This document shows positions 23,809 through 45,535 of a DNA stretch of 64,000 nucleotides, piece by piece. Within the stretch, counting starts at the first letter, position 1. The number at the start of each line of letters is the position of its first letter. Origin of the DNA: an uncultured Acidobacteriota bacterium (GTDB taxonomy: Bacteria; Acidobacteriota; Terriglobia; UBA7540). Location: positions 1,440,001 through 1,504,000 of the forward strand of contig CAWDSK010000006.1 of the NCBI GenBank assembly GCA_963804995.1. The letters are read 5' to 3'. The notes beneath the pieces were generated by a model. The model was not told where the DNA came from. It saw only the letters and a list, made by a program, of their open reading frames with translations, and searched no databases. The translations under genes and the position numbers were made by a program.

Positions 23809-23939
23809 ACAGTCAAGTCGGGAGTCCAGGGTCCTAAGTCCGGGGCCCAAGAACGTGGTTTTGGATGATCCGACCATCGGACCACAGAGTGATCTCGCGA
23901 TTGAGTGATGAGGTGATGGCCGGTCCCCCTCTCGATTTG

Positions 23940-24833
23940 TGGGCTCATGGACTAGTGCCAACCCGCCGATAACCGATATGGGGTAGTGCGTCACGGCGGG
24001 GGGAGAAGGGATTCGGGGTTCGGGTCTCGCTATACGAGGCCGGGGACTAACTGTGAGCTGTCGATTGTGAGCTGTCTGCACGGGGAAGTGCGTGGCGGCG
24101 GGGACGAGCGATCGGGAGATCGGTTGATCCGGAGATCGGGCGATCGGGTCATTTGTGAATGGCAATTTGTGATTTGCGATTTTCGAAGCCAGCATTTGAT
24201 TCATCTTCTCACCTGGCACCGCCGATAACCGAAGCGGGGGAGTGTGGGCCGGCGGGGGCTGGCGATCAGGAGATCAGGTCATTTGTGAATGGCGATTGGT
24301 GATTGGCGATTTTCGAAGTCAGCATTTGATTCATCTTCTTACCTGGCGCCGCCGATAACCGAAGCGGGGGAGTGTGGGCCAGCGGGGGCTAGTGATCGGG
24401 AGATCGGGTGATCCGGCGATCGCGTGATCGAATGATTGGAGCAGCACGTTACTGCCAGGCTCCGGTCGGCCGAATTGGGCTCATGTTCCTGTGCCATCCA
24501 TCCGATTACCGATGTGGGGAAGTGCGTCACGGGCGGGCGGGGTTCGGCCGGAGCGGTTAGCTGCTCGCCGCGAGTCTTCCGGGCCGTCGCGCTGCCCTGT
24601 CCTTGCAGTGACAGCCGGTAGCTGAGACAGGGGGCTGCGGCGGGTCGGTTAGGGCAGCGGGCCTCACCGCCTTTGACCTCCCGTCCAACGCCTGTCGCGC
24701 CTTCCGGCTTCGCCCCAATCATCGCGTCGCCTGCTCTTGCCAGCCCCGTCTCCGATGGAGGGTCCCTCTTTTCTCTTTCCTCCGCACTTTCAATAACCCC
24801 CTTTATTTTCATAAACATCGTGGGTTAGCGACT
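23940..24833. repeat. Composite dispersed element copy 1, left part (GATC-rich units plus conserved ORF)
   Basis: Homologous to 43232-44410; CCGATAACCG core recurs. Confidence 0.8.
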
Positions 24834-24900
24834 ATAACTAGGGCGACAAATCACATGACAAACAATGGCAGTAGAAGTTGGGTGTTCCGGTCCGCATTAA

Positions 24901-25065
24901 CTAACTGGCCTTCCGGTTGGCACGTCTCTGCTCACGGCCCTGCTTGAGTTGAGCATCAAGCTCTTCTTTGCCCACCGAAAGCAAGCGCCTGAGCCCCGCC
25001 TTAAACTTACGCGGCGATATTTTGACTTTTTCTTCGACGCCAGTTTGTCCCGTGTCTTTATACAT
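24901..25065 (-). CDS. Small basic protein coupled to the IS1595 transposase
   Basis: MYKDTGQTGVEEKVKISPRKFKAGLRRLLSVGKEELDAQLKQGREQRRANRKAS*; overlaps the transposase end; GGTGAGG upstream. Confidence 0.6.
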   Translation of the reverse strand: MYKDTGQTGVEEKVKISPRKFKAGLRRLLSVGKEELDAQLKQGREQRRANRKAS

Positions 25066-26011
25066 CCTCACCTTCTTTTCCGGTCAATTCGTTGTACGTC
25101 ACTCTCCGACCGTCTGCCTGTTTTAAGGCCGTCTGGAATCTCTCTCCGTCTGTCATCGTGCGAGTATTGAATCGGAAGGTAGCACTATCGAGATAGCGGT
25201 CAAGGTGAAAAGCGTCAACGGAATGATGCGTCCCGTAAATTGTCCGCTTGAACAGGCTCCAGAAGTTCTCAAGGCCGTTCGTGTGAACACGGCCCCGGAC
25301 AAATTCTTCGGCGTGATTGATGACTTCGTGAATGTAATTCTGCTCTTCGATTCCGTCATAGGACTTCAATGCGTCAGAGTAGATGACGGAGCCGGGAGCA
25401 ACGTTGCGGCTGATTTGTGCTTGAAGCTCTCCCTTGCGCACAGTCCGTACCTTTTTGGCGCGAATCGTACCATGCCGCTTGAGAAGTCCCATGACCGCGC
25501 ACTTGCCGATTGACCCACGGCCAAGATGCTGCCTTTTGCTCGCGTGCTTGAAGCGCTCTTTTCCGCCGATGAAAGTTTCGTCAACTTCGACTTCGCCAGA
25601 CAGCGGGTCGCGATCTCCGTTTTCGCGCATCGTGAGCCGGATTCGGTGAAGCATGAACCATGCGGTCCTTTGCGTCACATTGAGCGCCCGGCCAAGCTGA
25701 TAGGAACTCACATCTTTTTTCGATGACATCTCAAGCCAGAAGGCGGGAAGCCATTTATCCAAGCCAAGCGGGGAGTCCTCGAAAATCGTTCCGACCTTGA
25801 CCGTGAACTGCTTTCGGCAAGTCTTGCAGCGCCAGATGATTCCACGTGTCTTGCTATTGATCGTCCAGACCTCTGTCCCGCCGCAATCCGCACGCGGGCA
25901 AGTGACCTTACCATTGGGCCACCGGACATCTGCAAGAGCCTGATGGCATACTTCCGGGTCGGAGTAGTATCGAACTGCTTCAAGCAACGTTTCTGGTATG
26001 TTGTTAATCAT
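25058..26011 (-). CDS. IS1595-family transposase
   Basis: Zn ribbon CPRADC...CKTC, VEVDETFIGG, YSD, HTNGLENFWSLFKR. Confidence 0.97.
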   Translation of the reverse strand: MINNIPETLLEAVRYYSDPEVCHQALADVRWPNGKVTCPRADCGGTEVWTINSKTRGIIWRCKTCRKQFTVKVGTIFEDSPLGLDKWLPAFWLEMSSKKDVSSYQLGRALNVTQRTAWFMLHRIRLTMRENGDRDPLSGEVEVDETFIGGKERFKHASKRQHLGRGSIGKCAVMGLLKRHGTIRAKKVRTVRKGELQAQISRNVAPGSVIYSDALKSYDGIEEQNYIHEVINHAEEFVRGRVHTNGLENFWSLFKRTIYGTHHSVDAFHLDRYLDSATFRFNTRTMTDGERFQTALKQADGRRVTYNELTGKEGEDV

Positions 26012-26017
26012 GAGTAC

Positions 26018-26046
26018 AGTTTACGCCACTAATAGTTGTTTGTCAA
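26018..26046 (-). promoter_or_regulatory. Sigma70 promoter of the transposase
   Basis: TTGACA-N17-TAAACT, 6 nt before ATG. Confidence 0.7.
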
Positions 26047-26065
26047 GTACAAAATGAAATTATTT

Positions 26066-26734
26066 TTAGGGCGCTCCTATGCTTGGGTCTTGAAGGAATT
26101 CTTCAAGTTTTTGCTGGTCGCTCATCAATAACTTCCAAGTTTCATAGTATTCGGGTGTCATCCCTCCACCAAGGTAGGACTCATTACCTCTCGATTGACT
26201 GCGAAATCTCGCGAGGTACACATTCCCCCTGGGAATCGTTTTAAGATAATTCTCGATGGCTTTATGCCAGCTTTGAACAGACAATGCCCACTCATGCTGG
26301 TCCTTGTCTGGATAGACACTTCCCGGAAAAAATCTCGTACGTAGCGAGTTCCCCGTATCTATGTATCGGCTGATTTTCCCCTGTATGGAGCGTCGCGCCT
26401 TCTCAGTAGCTTCATCCGCAGATGACTTGCTACTATTAATCACGGTCGGAGGTGGCATATTGTTTGTAACTTGAACGGTCGGAGGCTGCTTGGTGTTATG
26501 CTCAATCTCAGCCAGTTGCCTACGTATTGCGGATTGGGTCTGCGCGTTCTTAGCTGCCTGAAATGCGATCAAGAGCACAGCCACGGCTCCGCAGGCTAAG
26601 AACTTGATTTTATAATGCTTCCGCGTGATCGGATCGTCTGTGGGGTGCAAAGTCACATGCACCCCCTGATAGGCCATATAAATCGTGAGGAGAGCAGACG
26701 CGACTGCCAATAACACGGTAATTGTCGTATCCAT
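26066..26734 (-). CDS. Passenger membrane protein (2 TM plus soluble domain), unknown function
   Basis: 222-aa ORF inside the IS, lower GC; TTGACA-N17-TAGTTT promoter overlapping the TIR. Confidence 0.8.
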   Translation of the reverse strand: MDTTITVLLAVASALLTIYMAYQGVHVTLHPTDDPITRKHYKIKFLACGAVAVLLIAFQAAKNAQTQSAIRRQLAEIEHNTKQPPTVQVTNNMPPPTVINSSKSSADEATEKARRSIQGKISRYIDTGNSLRTRFFPGSVYPDKDQHEWALSVQSWHKAIENYLKTIPRGNVYLARFRSQSRGNESYLGGGMTPEYYETWKLLMSDQQKLEEFLQDPSIGAP

Positions 26735-26790
26735 CGCATAAAACTACTGCCTGTACATTTGTTTGTCAAGTGATTCATCGCCATAACTAG

Positions 26791-27135
26791 CTTATTTTTC
26801 ATAAACATCGTGGCATTAGTCAAAATTTCACTTCCTTCTTTCTTTGTTTTCAACAACATCGTGGGTTTAACCTTCATTTTTAGTTCCCCATTTTTCCCTC
26901 ACCCCATTTGCAACAGAATCGATTAACTCTCCTCATTTCAATGAGATAGAATTTTGCCAAGTTTCTTCTCCTCTTCGCTAACCCCTTTTGCTTTCTATAA
27001 CATCGTGGCTTAGGGGCCTGAGTAAATTTCCGCAGATTGAATTAGTCTTGTTGTTTCAATGAGTTACATTTTGAGAGTTTTTGCTCCTCTTCGCTAACTC
27101 CTTTTGTTATCTGAAACATCGTGGCATAGGGCCGT
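26791..27135. repeat. AT-rich array of TTTTCATAAACATCGTGG-like motifs
   Basis: Copies at ~26797, 26848, 26993 and 27112, continuing the copy at ~24807 across the IS. Confidence 0.8.
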
Positions 27136-27213
27136 TAGTCAACTTGACGCGGTCGGGGCGAATTCTATCCTGATCCTATCGGGACACCCACCTTTGGCGA
27201 GGTAAACTCGCCG

Positions 27214-27654
27214 CTACGTCCTCCATTTGACCCACGACCTGACGCCTCTCTGCGGAGCCTGATCGGGGGGTCGGGAATTGCCCAACTCCAGGTCGATCGG
27301 TGATCTCAGGTTCGTGTTCCAGCCCGCCGATAACCGGAAGTGTTCGGGGAGGGCTCTGAAGGTCGGCGCTGGTTCGCCCCGAATTTCCGTATAACCTGTG
27401 CATTTTCGGCCCACAATCCCGATCGATTGCCATTTATCATCGCAAAATCCCGAAATTTTCTGCAAAAAGGTCGAACAATAGCCTGACAAATTGTCGTCCT
27501 CTCCTGTGTTTTCATACACATCGCCGGAGGTTCCTTCATTTTTAACATCTCTACGGATCTGTGCCCCTTCCCGGACGTTCGTCGGCGTGTTCGTGAAGCA
27601 TGGCAGACCCCCGATTTGGGGGCCCGTGGTTCTTCGAGTGCTGCCTGGATACAT
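27214..27654 (-). CDS. Hypothetical ORF of the composite element
   Basis: Follows the promoter/RBS-like block; contains NEGTSGDVYEN (motif-encoded) and VIG motifs; coding status uncertain. Confidence 0.3.
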   Translation of the reverse strand: MYPGSTRRTTGPQIGGLPCFTNTPTNVREGAQIRRDVKNEGTSGDVYENTGEDDNLSGYCSTFLQKISGFCDDKWQSIGIVGRKCTGYTEIRGEPAPTFRALPEHFRLSAGWNTNLRSPIDLELGNSRPPDQAPQRGVRSWVKWRT

Positions 27655-27751
27655 TATGGCGCTCCGCTTCCTCACCTCTATTGTGCTCTTGGTAGACTGG
27701 GCTATGTCAATAGGCAATGTATAGGTTTGGGCTACCGGTAGCCTAAGAATG
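27598..27751 (-). repeat. ~155-bp promoter-like dispersed repeat, copy A
   Basis: Matches 31225-31392 and 45038-45200. Confidence 0.88.
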
Positions 27752-28044
27752 CAAGGCGGGCAGCAAATTGGCCGAAAAAAGTGGCGCGGCTGACTTGCAC
27801 CGATGAATTGGGTCGCTACCTCGGGCCGTTAGACTATGTGGAAACATAAATTCGCTATCCGGTCCAGGGGCAATTCAGCGTGATCGTCCCGTGGGCCGTG
27901 CCGGTGGAAGGCCCCGTTAGGGCGATGATGGTGCCCTTGTCAAAAGGTGAACGAGTTGATCGCCTGCTGGCACTGGCCCCACAGCCGGGGCGGCCCCCTC
28001 TTGCTTTTCTTGCTGGTCACTCCCCACTGTCCTTTATGGCATCC

Positions 28045-28160
28045 TCTTTTCCCTGTTCCCTGTTACCTATCTTTCGCCTTTCCGCTTGTTGCTGGTGATT
28101 GTCCTGCTGTTCCCTGTTACCTGTTCCCTATTCCCTGTACTTCCGTTCCCTGTTCCCTGA
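28045..28160. repeat. Heptamer tandem repeat (CCTGTTC-like)
   Basis: cctgttc/cctgtta/cctattc units. Confidence 0.75.
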
Positions 28161-28330: not shown

Positions 28331-28700
28331 GTAGCGCAGAGTCTCGGGCTTTTGGAGACTCTGCGGCTTTTCGTTTGTTGGGCGCGGCTTCCGATCACCA
28401 CTTATTTCCCCCAGGGAAACTGGATCACCACGTTAGGTGGTTCAGCCTTGTGTTAATAATACCGTGCATGTTTATCATATTAAGAACTACCTGCTGCGTG
28501 TTAATAATACAGTGGATGTTTATCATATTAAGAACCGCAGAGTCTGAAAGGCACAGACTCTGCGCTGCTTGTGTCCCCCAGGGAAACTGGACCGCCACGT
28601 TAGGTGGTTCAGCCGCGTGTTAATAATGCAGTGGATGTTTATCATATTGAGAACCGCAGAGTCTGAAAGGGCCAGACTCTGCGCTACCCAGTCTGCGCTA
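28331..28700. repeat. REP-bracketed region with three 37-bp AT-rich direct repeats
   Basis: GTGTTAATAAT.C.GTG.ATGTTTATCATATT.AGAAC at 28450, 28498 and 28617. Confidence 0.8.
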
Positions 28701-28720: not shown

Positions 28721-29347
28721 TTACCAATATCTATCACGAACCACATCGACTCGGACTAGTTTTGACCTGCGGAACCGAAGGTCAATCTTTTCGTAAACAC
28801 TGATTAAAGCCGGGGGTGTAGAAAAACCGTCTATGAAGCGCGTAACTTCTTCAGGTGTAGGGGGGCGATCGTAGGAGGACTCGTACGTGAGGCGATCTTC
28901 CTGCATCTTAGTTGGGGGACCAAGAAGGGCCACGACCTCGCTGCGACCCATCCCCAGCTTTAGTCCACTCGCTGTCGACAGCGAGCTCGAAACGAGCCTT
29001 GACTGCGCGCACCGGCTGATTGATTGGGTCGATCCCTGGTAGAACCGAAATTCCACTACACCTGTAAGCCAATTATCGAACTCTAAAATGGTCCCGCCAT
29101 TTTCCGGCGAAGCGTAGCACCGGGAGGCTTCTTCGATGTGTCTGGCTTGTTTCACCGGTGCGGTACCAAGAATACGCTCAACATCTGCAACTTCACTACT
29201 CCCTAGCCTGATCCCGAGGACCTCGAAGTTCTTGGGATCCAGCTTTTGTCCTTCGGCCAGAGCGCCTGTGAGAACAAAGAAGAGTATCGAAACCAGACCG
29301 CCAACCAAAAGCATCATGTTTGCACGAGAAGACAGGTGTGTTGTCAT
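28721..29347 (-). CDS. Probable periplasmic immunity protein for the RHS-Tlde1 toxin
   Basis: ATGA overlap with the toxin stop; signal/TM segment; LGMGRSEVVALLGPP (SmpA/BamE-like) repeats. Confidence 0.7.
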   Translation of the reverse strand: MTTHLSSRANMMLLVGGLVSILFFVLTGALAEGQKLDPKNFEVLGIRLGSSEVADVERILGTAPVKQARHIEEASRCYASPENGGTILEFDNWLTGVVEFRFYQGSTQSISRCAQSRLVSSSLSTASGLKLGMGRSEVVALLGPPTKMQEDRLTYESSYDRPPTPEEVTRFIDGFSTPPALISVYEKIDLRFRRSKLVRVDVVRDRYW

Positions 29348-31140
29348 GGGATAACCTCTAGCGTCCCACCGTCACATTGAGCAAGTTTCTGCCTGCTTTC
29401 TTTCGAGGGGAGAACGATGCAGCCGGCGGACGCCTTACCTGTTGGATCAGTGTCGCCATGGATCATGAATGAACGCGTCGCGCCGCTACGACCGGGTGGG
29501 ATGAGAACGTCGCCGGTTGCTGTTAAGTCAAATTGAGGATTCCCCGCGTGTCCGTGATAGCCTTTTCCAAAGATCCATGTCCCCATCGGGATGGGACCGC
29601 CTTGAATAGCGGCGCCGTTGGGTGCCACTTTCCCGGGGAGGTCGGTTTCGGCCAGATTGTTCATTGCATAACCATACCCAGAGTATCCATACGTATCGAT
29701 GAAGTAGTAGTCGCCACCTGAGCTAGGCCCGAAGCACTGGATATGTCCAGTCGAGATCGAAAATGTACATCCGCACGATAGACCGAAGGGATCAAGAAAG
29801 AGAACAGGGTTGTTGAATACATACGCATAGAAATTGACATCTCCACTGCGCCATCTGGCTGGATCCTCGCTGAGGAAGCGGCCTGTAGCTGGACCGTAGT
29901 ATCTGGCGCGGTAGTAGTAGAGGCCGGTTTCGGAGTCGAATTCGCGGCCGGTGTACTGGAAGGGATTAGTGACCGTCCCGGTTGAGGCCGTGAGGTTGCC
30001 GAAGGAATCGTACACGTAGCTGGCGGCGAGTTGGCCCGAGCCATCCGTCAGGGAGGTTATAGAGCCCAGGCCGTCCGCGTGGATAGTAAGATGTGCGTAA
30101 GTCCCTGATATATGGCCAGCGGCTCGTCGATGCCTGCGCCTTGCGTGTAGTGGGCCAGCAGGTTGCCTCCTCCGCCCAGTTCCTCAATCATGTTGGCGCC
30201 GTCATAGGCGTAAATCGTGGTGGCGCTGCCGTAAACCTTGCGAATCCTTCGTCCCAAAGGGTCATAGTTGAAATTCACGGTCCCACCGGTTCCCGGCAGG
30301 GTCACGCTGGTGAGGCGGTTCTCGAAATCCCAGGTGTAGTAGGTCGTCCCGGTCGTGTCGGTTTTGCTCAGCGTGTTTCCGTTATTGTCGTACGTGTACG
30401 TGGCGGCGGAGGTGGAGGTGAGCTCGTTCGAAGCGTTGTAGTTGTACGACGTGGGTCCGGCCGAGGTCAGCCGATTGCCCACCGCGTCGTAGGTGTAGCC
30501 CTCCGCCAAGTTGCCTCCCACCACCGCCTGCGTCAACTCGTAGATGTAGTCATAGCTGTAATTGGAGGTCACCGAAACGGGATTGGGGTTCGCCTGCTGG
30601 ACGGCCGTCTTGCTGGTGCGGTTCCCCGCCGCGTCGTAAGTGTAGCCGGCGCTCCCCGGCAGGTAGCCTCCGAGGACGCCGAGCCGGCGCGAAAAGGAGC
30701 GTAGCGCGGACCTCCGATTTTGAGGTCCGCGGCTCTTCCTGCGAAAAATCTCAGACCTCTGCTCCCCTCCGATTCGGTAGCGTGAACTTAACGAAGAACC
30801 GCAGACCTCAAAAGCGGAGGTCTGCGCTACCACACCATTCGGCCGCGTCAGGGAAGTCCGGCGCCCCAGATTGTCGTAACTGAAGGTGTATGTGCCGGAG
30901 GGGGCCGTGACCTGCGTCAGGCGGCTCAGCAGGTCGTAACTGTAATTGACTGCCCGGGAATTCGGAAGGGTCTTGCTGGTCAGGCGATAGAGGGCGTTCC
31001 TTCGACTGCGCTCAGGACAGGCTCCGCCATAGCTGATCGTTTGCAGCTTGCGGTCCGTCTTGGTCAGCAGATTGTTCATCGCGTCATAAGTGTAACTCTC
31101 GCTGAGCGTCGAGGGGAAGGTGATAACCCGCCCCAGAGCG
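29344..31140 (-). pseudogene. Truncated, frameshifted RHS toxin with C-terminal Tlde1 (DUF2778)-like domain
   Basis: YD repeats, YTGREFDSETGLYYYRARYY core, DPFGL cleavage motif, then GYSG...GPIPMGTW...FMIHGD...SAGCIV; frameshift at ~30085-30100; 5' part missing. Confidence 0.85.
30701..30830. repeat. GTAGCGC REP doublet inside the RHS reading frame
   Basis: Same family as 7704-7849 and 9915-10054. Confidence 0.88.
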
Positions 31141-31224
31141 TCTCCGTGACCTCTGTGTGAAAGCTCTTCGGGACGCAGAGGACACAGAGAAATGTTTGCT
31201 AAAGAAACAAGCATTCACGGTATG

Positions 31225-31392
31225 GCATGGCAGACCCCCGATTTGGGGGCCCGTGGAACTTCGGTAGAAAGTGCTGCCTGGACGCATCATGGCGCTACGC
31301 TTCCTCACCTCTATTGTGCTCCCAACTGACTGGGCTATGTCAATAGGCAATGTACGCTTTTGGGCTACCGGTAGCCCAAAAATGAAATAGAT
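31225..31392 (-). repeat. ~160-bp promoter-like dispersed repeat, copy B
   Basis: Alignment with copies A and C. Confidence 0.88.
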
Positions 31393-31478
31393 CGGACAAC
31401 TCGCCCGTTTGATGCAGCGCTGACCAGTTTTTCACGCCCCTTCCTGGTGGCTAGTGTATGCTTCGCGGCATCGGGCAG

Positions 31479-43231: not shown

Positions 43232-43925
43232 GATTTGCGAATGGCGATTTGTGATTGGCGATTTTCGAAGTCAGCATTTGATTCATCTTCTCACCTGGCA
43301 CCGCCGATAACCGAAGCGAGGGAGTGTGTGCCGGCGGGGGCAGAGGATCGGGAGATCGGGTGATCCGGTGATCGGGCGATCGGGAGATTTGCGAATGGCG
43401 ATGGGTGATTGGCGATTTTCGAAGTCAGCATTTGATTCATCCTCTCACCTGGCACCGCCGATAACCGAAGCGAGGGAGTGTGGGCCGGCGGGGGCTGAGG
43501 ATCGGGAGATCGGGTGATCTGGCGATCGGGCGATCGGGAGATTTGCGAATGGCGATTGGTGATTTTCAAAGTCGGCATTTGATTCATCCTCTCACCTGGC
43601 ACCGCCGATAACCGAAGCGGGGGAGTGTGGGCCGGCGGGGGCAGAGGATCGAGAGATCGGGTGATCCGGTGATCGGGCGATCGGGAGATTTGCGAATGGC
43701 GATTGGTGATTTTCGAAGTCAGCATTTGATTCATCTTCTCACCTGGCACCGCCGATAACCGAAGCGGGGGAGTGTGGGCCGGCGGGGGCAGAGGATTGGG
43801 AGATCGGTTGATCTGACGATCGGGCGATCGAATCGTCGGACAGGCGAATTGCTGCCAATTTCCGGTCGGCCGAATTGGGCTCAGGTTCCGTCATAAACTT
43901 ACCGATAACCGAAGCGGGGGAGTGT
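43232..43925. repeat. Tandem array of four ~150-bp GATC-rich units plus a partial unit
   Basis: Unit starts at 43237, 43391, 43545 and 43692 (periods 154, 154, 147). Confidence 0.93.
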
Positions 43926-44021
43926 TCACGCTGGGGTTGGGGCGTGGGCGCCGCCCATTTCTCTGCCCTGGACCTTGGCTTTTTCTCGTCACTCATCACT
44001 CGTCACTCGTCACTGCTCTTT

Positions 44022-44632
44022 GAGTGCGTCACGGGCGGGCGGCATTCGGCCGGAGCGGTTAGCGGCTCGCCGCGGGGCTTCCGGGCCGTGGGGGTCTTTT
44101 GTCTCAGCCGTGACAACCGGTGGCCGAAGTAGGAGGCGGCAGGTCGGTTAGGGCAGCGGGCCTCAGCGCTTTTGACCTCCTGCCCCACCCTTTTCGTAAC
44201 TTCCAGCTTCGCCCCGATCATCGCGTCACCCGTTTCTTTAACCCTGTTCTCGATGGGGGTTCTTTCGTCTCCCAACTTGAACGCAGCGCCCCCAGCTTGG
44301 CGGCTCAATGCCGGCTGGAAGCAGACGCTGGTGCGAATGGCGACGGCTTGGTCCTTTTTTCTTCCCATTTTCTTAACTAACTACCTTTCTTTTCATAAAC
44401 ATCGTGGCAAAACAACCATAACTTACTTGTTTTCATAAACATCGCTAGACTTGCCAAATTGTCGCTTTTGTTTTCCTTTGTTTTCATACACATCGTTAGA
44501 CTATCCTGATTGAAATTATTTGCGCTTTTCTTCTTACCCGCAGTAAATGCAACTCATTTTATTTCAACTAGATAGGTTTTTGCTAAAAAATCCCTTTTCA
44601 CGCCTAACCCCCTTTATTTTCATGAACATCTT
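44022..44632. repeat. Composite element copy 2: conserved ORF segment plus CATAAACATCG motif array
   Basis: 44022-44230 aligns with 24520-24730; motifs at ~44391, 44430, 44481 and 44617. Confidence 0.8.
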
Positions 44633-45037
44633 CACAAACAGCGGGCGCTGTGTTCCGAAAAAAGGAAGAACTTCAGCCACGTCTTGGCACGGCGCTCCGC
44701 TCCCCCAGAGCCTCTCCGTGACCTCTGCTCTTCGGGACGCAGAGGACACAGAGCGGCGGAGCCGCAACCAAAATGGAAAAGGCGCTGCTAGTTCCGTAGT
44801 TGGGTGCGGGTCTGCTCATCGGGTGTTGAAGTAACCCCTCACCCGTCCCGCCCCGGCTGATGAAAACGCCGGCGGCGGTCCACCCTCTCCCCTCGGAGAG
44901 GGTGGTTTGATTTCCAACCTTCTCCCAGGGGAGAAGGTGCTGAGGTACGAAGCGGATGAGGGGTTGCTTCGACGGAAGTCGCGACTTTCAATCCTTGCCC
45001 CAAAAGGTTTGCTAAAGAAACCGGCCTTCACGGTAGG

Positions 45038-45200
45038 GCATGGCAGATCCCCGATCTTGGGGCCCGCGGTTCTTCGAGGACTGCCTGGACACATCATGGC
45101 GCAACTCTTTCTCATCTCTATTGTGCGCTTAATCGACTGGGCTATGTCAATAGGCAATACACGCGTGCGGGCTACCGGTAGCCCAAAAATGAAATAAATC
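45038..45200 (-). repeat. ~160-bp promoter-like dispersed repeat, copy C
   Basis: Alignment with copies A and B. Confidence 0.88.
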
Positions 45201-45535
45201 AATCAAATTGCCCGAACGAAGGGCGAGGGGAGGAGCCAAGGATGCAGAAGATGGAGTTAGAAGGCGGAAAGCAGAAGGCAGCGAGTGCCATTCGCACCAC
45301 AGATGCAGCATCAGGGATTTGCGGCGCAAATTCGTTGGTTTCCTTTGGGCCTCCCCTTTTGCCATTTGGTTTTCTTTTGCGGTTCGGCCGAGTTGCCCTA
45401 CCTGGCAGGAGCCACCATTCCGAGCCCAAAAATGTTCTTCCGAATGTGAGCAATATTGAACAGACAATTTACGTCCCCGGAGTGGAAAATACAGAATGCC
45501 TCCTAAGATGCTGAGGAGGCGACTCTGGTGGGACC

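Follow-up and report, generated by a model that had tools for sequence, protein, structure and literature searches.

Introduction

The described systems closest to the element analysed here are phage satellites and gene transfer agents (GTAs), and features are also shared with degenerate transposons and repeat arrays. The small terminase (TerS) of staphylococcal pathogenicity islands (SaPIs) is one case of a satellite redirecting packaging. MITEs (miniature inverted-repeat transposable elements) and other deletion derivatives of transposons occur as many copies in which the ends are kept and the gene is lost, and arrays of repetitive extragenic palindromic (REP) sequences, bacterial interspersed mosaic elements (BIMEs) and REP doublets forming hairpins (REPINs) are intergenic and modular, and they expand and contract. 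The element studied here lies in a stretch of 64,000 nucleotides from an uncultured Acidobacteriota bacterium (assembly GCA_963804995.1, contig CAWDSK010000006.1, positions 1,440,001 to 1,504,000), which at its full length is called the window below, and an earlier note made from the letters alone had described it there as two copies, here named A and B, of a dispersed, multi-module element. A search of the main texts of the open full-text literature, with subscription journals outside its coverage, found no published description of such an element.

Like the phage-inducible chromosomal island-like element (PLE) of Vibrio phage ICP1, with its Gpi, GpsA/B and pac mimicry, and like phage-inducible chromosomal islands (PICIs) and SaPIs, as treated in the available part of the source (10.1101/2024.04.22.590561), the element does not belong to the helper's own DNA, encodes a protein that is predicted to engage a helper large terminase (TerL), and has a candidate packaging signal in cis. 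It differs from them in having dozens of dispersed copies, each with one gene at most and without capsid-resizing genes, and in that its helper would be a resident single-copy locus with a common operator. Having no integrase, attachment (att) sites or replication genes either, the element, which we call a cassette, would work like a phage satellite but falls outside that class. What the system has in common with GTAs such as RcGTA is a virion and lysis locus that is present once and maintained vertically, along with a TerS whose C-terminus would dock on TerL. The available portions of the cited papers (PMC6854486, PMC11841831) give the described GTA TerS proteins no DNA-binding domain and do not describe dispersed adaptor genes or cognate boxes, whereas here a Mu-like locus is accompanied by scattered TerS-like genes.

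What was observed is the copy number, a fixed order of modules, internal deletions, an operator shared with the virion locus, and a cassette protein similar in sequence both to small terminases and to the tail of the resident TerS. We propose, at even confidence, that copies A and B are gene-less copies of a cassette that acts as a minimal, selfish satellite of the resident Mu-like virion locus.

Results

A dispersed cassette with a fixed order of modules

In the following, G000 denotes the source genome, labels from C1 to C9 (C2, C3 and so on) its contigs, and other G-numbers its relatives. Sequence inspection, BLASTN and module comparison bore out that the two loci carry the same modules in the same order, both on the minus strand. 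The operator/promoter block is 83% identical over 157 bp between the heads of copy A (27680–27776) and copy B (45120–45216), the frame encoding EARCPNRP, called the C module below, is 81% identical over 211 bp, and the tandem units have periods of 130 bp in copy A and of 154, 147 and 147 bp in copy B. The AT-rich box CATAAACATCG, called the T box, occurs exactly at 24810 and 26800 in copy A and at 44394 and 44434 in copy B, and a looser definition gives a total of ten across the two copies.

The element is not, as had been thought, present only twice. Whole-genome BLASTN with each module found every one of them in multiple copies, and 66 operator heads were located genome-wide, including a third head in the window, which is at odds with a simple local duplication of two copies. 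Nor is the order of the modules random elsewhere, as 15 of the 17 copies with a C module show the order operator, T boxes, C module and tandem units. A head consists of a 14-bp palindrome, the operator, followed 18–19 bp on by TTGACA or TTGCAA; 68 operator sites were found, from which two one-mismatch matches without a promoter were dropped. The exact palindrome has 60 occurrences, well above chance, as the median count over 420 palindromes with an equal base composition is 0; one of these others, CCCGATGCATCGGG, likewise occurs 60 times in G000 and is probably the core of a REP-like repeat.

T-box arrays follow 52 of the 66 heads on the same strand. The genome contains 223 T boxes, compared to 14 in the reversed control, and these form 96 clusters, of which 56 have an operator within 4.5 kb upstream on the same strand, one has an operator downstream and two have one on the opposite strand. 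The commonest spacings between T boxes are 51 bp (31 times), 40 bp (27 times) and 41 bp (15 times). In the relative G004 (C47:20314–20998 and other contigs), the period is instead about 155–175 bp. Oppositely oriented T arrays are joined at C5:473400–473800 and C6:1401560–1402020, a hint of rearrangement within box arrays.

Heads are spread over eight of the nine contigs with random, Poisson-like spacing (mean 104 kb; coefficient of variation, CV, 0.95). The cassettes, 1.2–2 kb in size, are mosaics with block-by-block identities of about 70–99%; blocks that are nearly identical recur at loci far apart, one of them with 98% identity over 1438 bp from the operator onward, and the 3' end is ragged. 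Among 27 cassettes, whose 3' ends could be placed only roughly, the longest inverted match was mostly 6–9 bp (one of 12), and with ends so placed the mean longest direct match was 6.6 bp versus 6.7 bp in mismatched pairs. No integrase family was present among the open reading frames (ORFs) of the two window copies, and three DNA sequencing runs yielded no usable excision joint (shares 0.04–0.14, short pieces only). The description in the earlier note of a multicopy, non-autonomous element with a fixed module order and without a transposase, a detected terminal inverted repeat (TIR) or a target duplication is thus supported, and so is the invasion of its modules by REPs and an insertion sequence (IS), with REP-like inserts in copy B and an IS1595-family element in copy A. 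Its suggestion of lineage specificity applies to the exact sequences and not to the architecture, which is genus-wide.

The gene of the parent cassette and its deletion

Some heads drive an ORF of 296–384 amino acids whose end falls within the T array or immediately ahead of it. A profile search of G000 with this family found 24 loci, comprising 10 full or nearly full-length genes, 11 C-terminal ends and three N-terminal starts, and an operator lies upstream of 19 of the 24. Seven of the 10 full or nearly full-length genes have an operator, three of those seven being in two pieces. Intact cassettes hold this single gene, which has no family match at the cut-off. The intact cassette at C4:38575 matches copy B with 82% identity over 545 bp, the similarity beginning at the last 15 codons of the gene, and the one at C3:28054 matches copy A with 79% identity over 126 bp. 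Since each of them retains no more than the tail of the gene, copies A and B are, on sequence comparison, gene-less internal deletion derivatives of a gene-bearing cassette. The earlier reading had thus recognized a mobile-like family and had missed the parent cassette's own gene and the tie to a Mu-like virion locus.

An IS of 1.94 kb with a DDE transposase of the IS240/rve type (for example C3:400073–402017) is present in seven copies, one of them partial, that are 99.8–100% identical; six of the seven lie inside cassettes, at or near the start of a retained gene tail, which suggests a target preference of this IS.

Of the 24 genomes of the genus that were searched, 23 have the cassette gene and 23 have the T box. 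In the relative G013, an operator, an intact gene and a T array stand directly upstream of uvrC, which is the place of copy B. Nothing occupies this site in G015 and G018, and in G020 there is a remnant 4 kb off; the upstream neighbours differ in all five genomes. The site of copy A in G018 is without an operator. The operator core CTACCGGTAG, its genus-wide form, stands before TTGAC in 17 of 28 genomes, with flanks that differ by species, and exact operator-promoter counts range from 0 to 47 per genome. Across genome contigs, the GG-flanked exact operator pattern was found in 44 stretches, with one match each and at most two per genome, almost all of them from unrelated taxa, and we read these matches as chance.

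A resident Mu-like virion locus headed by the same operator

The cassettes share their operator, down to its distance from TTGAC, with a virion locus of G000, which is headed by four operator palindromes (C5:300718–301095). The operators are followed, in this order, by a small helix–turn–helix (HTH)-like ORF, an endolysin, a putative TerS, terL, a Mu portal, a protease, the major capsid protein and tail genes. The terL product is FluMu gp28-like, and the gene before terL resembles Mu Gp27 (0.94 in the atlas; PF11985 on 28% of the nearest named cluster). The resident TerS retains its N-terminal part. One operator precedes the lysin gene in all three fetched relatives (G006, G013 and G015), and in G001, G002 and G021 one operator lies 5–7 kb upstream of the terS match, as judged from coordinates only. 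A terL was found in 20 of the 24 genus genomes, generally at a single locus; besides G000, it is in pieces in G002, G003, G006, G013 and G017. Sharing one operator, the domesticated virion locus and the roughly 60 scattered cassettes would make up a new regulon, even if packaging is left aside.

Right behind the four operators lies a single-copy ORF of 127 amino acids with a Fis-like HTH recognized by eye (C5:301168–301551, L113:5169–5552), which is a candidate regulator of the operator; it has no Pfam, PHROG or NCBIfam match and is present in one of the three fetched relatives (G013). Furthermore, one or two short ORFs resembling the N-terminal 85 residues of TerS precede the putative TerS in G000 and in several relatives (L141, L137 and L139).

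The cassette protein resembles small terminases

The cassette protein has no match at cut-off in Pfam, NCBIfam or PHROG, and in a sequence search of the PDB no E value was under 0.46. Its relatives form 30,820 clusters at 50% identity, and the predicted model of one member is all-helical with a long helical hairpin (predicted local distance difference test score, pLDDT, 85.5; predicted template modelling score, pTM, 0.67). Neither by profile nor by fold did the parent protein match a DDE, HUH or recombinase family. Two similarities connect it with small terminases. Residues 23–98 match, in Bacillus phage vB_BboS-125, the product of the gene that immediately precedes terL (tblastn E 0.005, the best of three records), and a profile comparison of the N-terminal part with that phage protein gave a probability of 95% (E 6e-8, 73 columns). 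The phage protein in turn matches three PHROG small-terminase families. The cassette protein shares with vB_BboS-125 and with phrog_9231, 1889 and 509 the arm GP.T..GK....N..KHG.YS and the helices following it, and it differs from them in having no terL neighbour, in its long helical hairpin, in carrying a Mu Gp27-type tail in mid-protein in one subfamily, and in being multicopy. The N-terminal part of the cassette protein thus resembles a phage small terminase at the level of sequence.

In one subfamily, a mid-protein helix matches the C-terminal helix of the resident putative TerS, with 15 of 17 residues identical in one copy (E 4e-9) and, in a profile–profile comparison, a probability of 96% over 38 columns; matches to the tail were obtained in G003 and G017 too. 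A tail profile built from 18 TerS tails, applied at a threshold of 12 bits or more, matched 118 of 268 retrieved family proteins, a set biased to the closest subfamily, at 44–57% of their length, and none of the 268 reversed sequences. Variants of the TerS tail recur in cassette proteins. Copies A and B of the window encode no TerS-like tail. The C-termini of TerS proteins bind TerL in lambda and P22 (PMC9611059) and in RcGTA (PMC6854486), as stated in the available parts of these sources, and the captured helix is therefore by analogy likely to be a TerL-docking element.

No terL stands beside a cassette gene in G000, where the single terL locus and the 24 family loci lie apart. Viral contigs gave no match to one cassette protein or to the exact operator pattern. 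An assignment of the cassette genes to the HGGxSTG domain (NF041373) was rejected because no match was obtained.

The C frame and the tandem units

The earlier note had seen a conserved reading frame in the C module and had offered disordered proteins or a long non-coding RNA (ncRNA) as an alternative to a mobile element. A conserved protein from the CPNRPAA frame is not supported: in 14 of the 17 copies, three being left out as partial or divergent, dN/dS was 0.73, compared to 0.82–0.97 in the other five frames, with no third-position excess (P=0.28), and frame-shifting indels occur in five of the 14 copies and start codons differ. Stop-creating variants are nevertheless absent from this frame, with 0 of 189 against 5.1 expected (P=0.0015) and 0 of 163 against 4.4 expected (P=0.004), and the C frame thus looks translated or kept open, without protein-level conservation. 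For the leader, the tandem unit and the T-block of copy B, tests of this kind gave no significant result, and among 30 stop tests one frame of the Q module gave P=0.011. A long structured ncRNA found no support either, as six of six module pieces fold no better than shuffled sequences (z from −0.8 to 0.6) and Rfam gave no match.

The core of the tandem unit is TCAT-N16-(G)CCGATAA followed by CCGA. Its form is sigma-28-like, with a conserved −35 element, a variable 16-bp spacer and the −10 element GCCGATAA, according to a consensus from 45 non-redundant of 147 sites. The same form was seen by eye before a CheA-like ORF, a search before flagellin found none, and FliA/WhiG is over the cut-off twice in the genome. 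The tandem units thus carry predicted antisense sigma-28-like promoters. All 27 unit clusters near an operator aim back into the cassette, and the units are also a repeat family of their own, with 46 of 73 clusters having no operator within 4.5 kb upstream. An array of integration host factor (IHF) sites was considered and rejected, since 18 matches to the Escherichia coli consensus were found in 52 arrays versus 27 ± 5 in shuffled sequences.

Organization of the copies in the window

Copy A begins on the minus strand with a 5' box of the CGGACAAT type (27767–27776), which is found in 47 of 66 heads and at which an alignment of 32 heads places the sharp start of cassette-shared sequence. The palindromic operator GGCTACCGGTAGCC (27730–27743) has its centre some 26 bp upstream from the −35 hexamer of a predicted sigma-70-like promoter (TTGACA, 19 bp, CACAAT; 27680–27710, minus strand), called here and in the other copies against the sigma-70 consensus. 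In a minus-strand frame of 153 codons (27214–27675), the leader runs on, with the frame preserved, into the 3' end of the cassette gene that was lost; this retained end (DVKNEG..DVYEN.G.DD, about 27345–27555) is the extra module of copy A. There follow a high-copy repeat insert with one sigma-28-like unit (27150–27340; 93 BLAST matches of at least 40 bp) and a minus-strand T-box array of the GATGTTnATGAAAAYAAAG type (26792–27120), whose last box has been pushed to 24802–24819 by an IS. This IS1595-family insertion (24842–26782, minus strand) is an invader and not part of the cassette; it is flanked by an 8-bp target duplication, has its transposase ORF at 25058–26011 and occurs in three genome copies that are 99.9–100% identical, and its passenger ORF of 222 amino acids (26066–26734, minus strand) has no Pfam, PHROG or NCBIfam match. 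The C module (24339–24818, minus strand) has an open frame with little constraint on its amino acids, and the tandem units (23940–24524, plus strand), with sigma-28-like sites at 23945, 24201, 24331 and 24481, aim back into the cassette. The neighbouring radical S-adenosylmethionine (SAM) gene is convergent with copy A. Just upstream of the head of copy A, at 28480–28660, there is a direct repeat, about 115 bp in length, with TTAATAAT..GGATGTTTATCATATT in it, and degenerate short tandem runs of 7 bases flank or invade the cassettes at 23810–23930, 28040–28160, 43990–44015 and 45240–45290.

Copy B has its 5' box at 45207–45216 (minus strand, from the head alignment), its palindromic operator at 45170–45183 and its predicted sigma-70-like promoter at 45120–45150 (minus strand). 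REP-like inserts (44690–44970; 405 and 15 BLAST matches of at least 40 bp) stand in place of the gene body, and the last 15 codons of the deleted gene remain at 44607–44651 (minus strand), encoding APAVCEDVHENKGG* as compared to APAACEDVNEKKGG* in the intact C4 cassette. The T-box array (44386–44630, minus strand) consists of four boxes spaced 136, 51 and 40 bp apart, and it is followed by the frame of the C module (44003–44368, minus strand) and by tandem units (43233–43930, plus strand) whose predicted sigma-28-like promoters, with sites at 43283, 43437, 43584 and 43731, point into the cassette and away from uvrC, the downstream gene in the same orientation as copy B. The third, truncated copy (31313–31408, minus strand) comprises a box, an operator, a promoter and a leader with a repeat, and is followed directly by an RHS fragment. 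This fragment precedes an RHS-core ORF and a 208-amino-acid ORF of unknown type (28721–31214, minus strand), and the third head could, from its position, put this orphan RHS module under the cassette promoter.

Discussion

Considering these results, we propose the following scenario, read from sequence, to explain the cassettes as satellites of the virion locus. One transcription factor would induce the virion operon and the cassettes together, and the cassette protein would bind the T boxes found at its own gene's 3' end. The captured helix would recruit TerL, so that cutting and headful packaging would begin at cassettes, and gene-less copies such as A and B would be served in trans. The cassettes would thus probably get their own DNA loaded into resident phage-like particles. 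Delivered DNA would recombine through flanking homology or shared repeat modules, which would leave mosaic copies at new places and no target duplications, and both the C frame that stays open and the sigma-28-like units in antisense may be later accretions on a subset of copies. More tentatively, and at somewhat less than even confidence, the cassettes may be generalized as integrase-free one-gene satellites in which a TerS-like adaptor with a captured Mu-like terminase helix is expressed from a promoter copying the virion operator; dozens of them, mostly gene-less, would be packaging starts for a GTA-like particle, and the family of 30,000 clusters would be an adaptor scaffold found across phyla.

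Several observations weigh against this satellite proposal, in which binding, packaging and movement are themselves proposed steps and re-insertion by recombination is the weakest. The terL of G000 is interrupted by an in-frame stop within a short-period repeat insert, and the portal gene there is split into two ORFs (C5:307688–309094, L113:13284–15081); the virion helper may therefore be inactive in this genome, or the assembly may be in error. T boxes and tandem units were not found at the virion locus. A strict dependence on the locus is also opposed by G040, where 50 cassette-gene matches accompany weak terL-profile matches, and by four incomplete genomes (G007, G011, G014 and G021) in which the gene was found and terL was not. 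As for the protein, its predicted fold had no Foldseek match in the PDB or BFVD at E<=0.001, direct family scans of cassette proteins gave nothing at cut-off, one of 121 members matched a TerS PHROG (E 0.004), and a scan of four genomes with that family, phrog_9231, had no match. The tail occurs in 24 of the 121 members of a diverse alignment and is thus a property of part of the family only; in G000, four cassette-family proteins exceed the reversed-control maximum of 12.1 bits, two of them barely (13.8 and 14.3), and the best-matching copy (C2:130794) has no upstream operator. The tail tracks the TerS of its own genome weakly (permutation P=0.019 over 11 genomes with one copy each, in which kin are not independent), the own-genome TerS ranking 1–2 in four genomes and 10–16 of 16 in four others.

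An unlikely alternative is that the host has domesticated the cassettes as packaging starts, dispersed adaptor and box sites with an unchanged anatomy letting GTA-like particles sample the whole chromosome to the benefit of the host. The common operator and the terminase tail would suit such a role, as would a mean head spacing of about 100 kb over eight of nine contigs, the finding that two species have a cassette next to uvrC and, in the available portion of the source, the discrete packaging peaks of some GTAs (PMC11841831). However, the Poisson-like spacing is uneven (CV 0.95), the uvrC site lacks a cassette in G015 and G018 and retains a mere remnant in G020, the site of copy A is without an operator in G018, operator-promoter counts vary from 0 to 47 per genome and the gene is lost in most copies. 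Furthermore, the resident TerS keeps its N-terminal part, unlike the described GTA TerS.

It is similarly improbable that the cassette protein is a terminase decoy, induced with the virion locus, that blocks TerL or competes with TerS, the boxes serving autoregulation and the cassettes spreading by ordinary recombination. Mimicry of the tail suits inhibition as much as recruitment, and Gpi, a satellite protein, both binds TerL and prevents packaging, according to the available part of the source (10.1101/2024.04.22.590561). A decoy, however, leaves unexplained the gene-less majority that retains an operator and boxes at 51 and 40–41 bp.

The cassettes may instead be MITE-like and depend for their movement on a transposase or recombinase that acts in trans from elsewhere, such as one associated with REPs, with the operator end and the box array as their ends and the terminase link incidental, though we regard this as quite unlikely. 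As in MITEs, gene-deleted copies keep their ends, and the sharp 5' boundary, the near-identical distant blocks (98% over 1438 bp), the CCAC/CTAC resembling a REP foot just before 13 of 47 boxes and the multicopy state of the wider protein family in a genome without this terL all fit such movement. Unlike MITEs, the cassettes are 1.2–2 kb, mosaic and promoter-led, and no TIR, target duplication or transposase was found in them, inverted and direct matches being not above controls in the 27 cassettes; moreover, the 3' end is ragged, and both the virion-locus operator and the captured tail would have to be coincidental. With REP, BIME and REPIN arrays, the cassettes share an intergenic, modular and size-variable character, and REP-like repeats invade them, but their polarity is fixed by the operator-promoter and the parent gene, and their T boxes are direct and non-palindromic. 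Finally, a long ncRNA family or a family of short disordered proteins, as the earlier note alternatively suggested, is very improbable, since the strong-looking promoter, the sense orientation of all boxes and the C frame without stop-creating variants are set against the absence of an Rfam match, folding no better than that of shuffles, a dN/dS close to that of other frames, indels, varying start codons and the tolerance of large IS and REP insertions.

If the satellite proposal is true, it would give a function to a very large unannotated family and would describe selfish DNA that spreads without a transposase or an integrase. It would also offer an answer to why GTA-like particles favour some regions of the chromosome. 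The lineage in which the proposed regulon is found is common in peat and soil, and its relatives are named Terriglobia by their sources.

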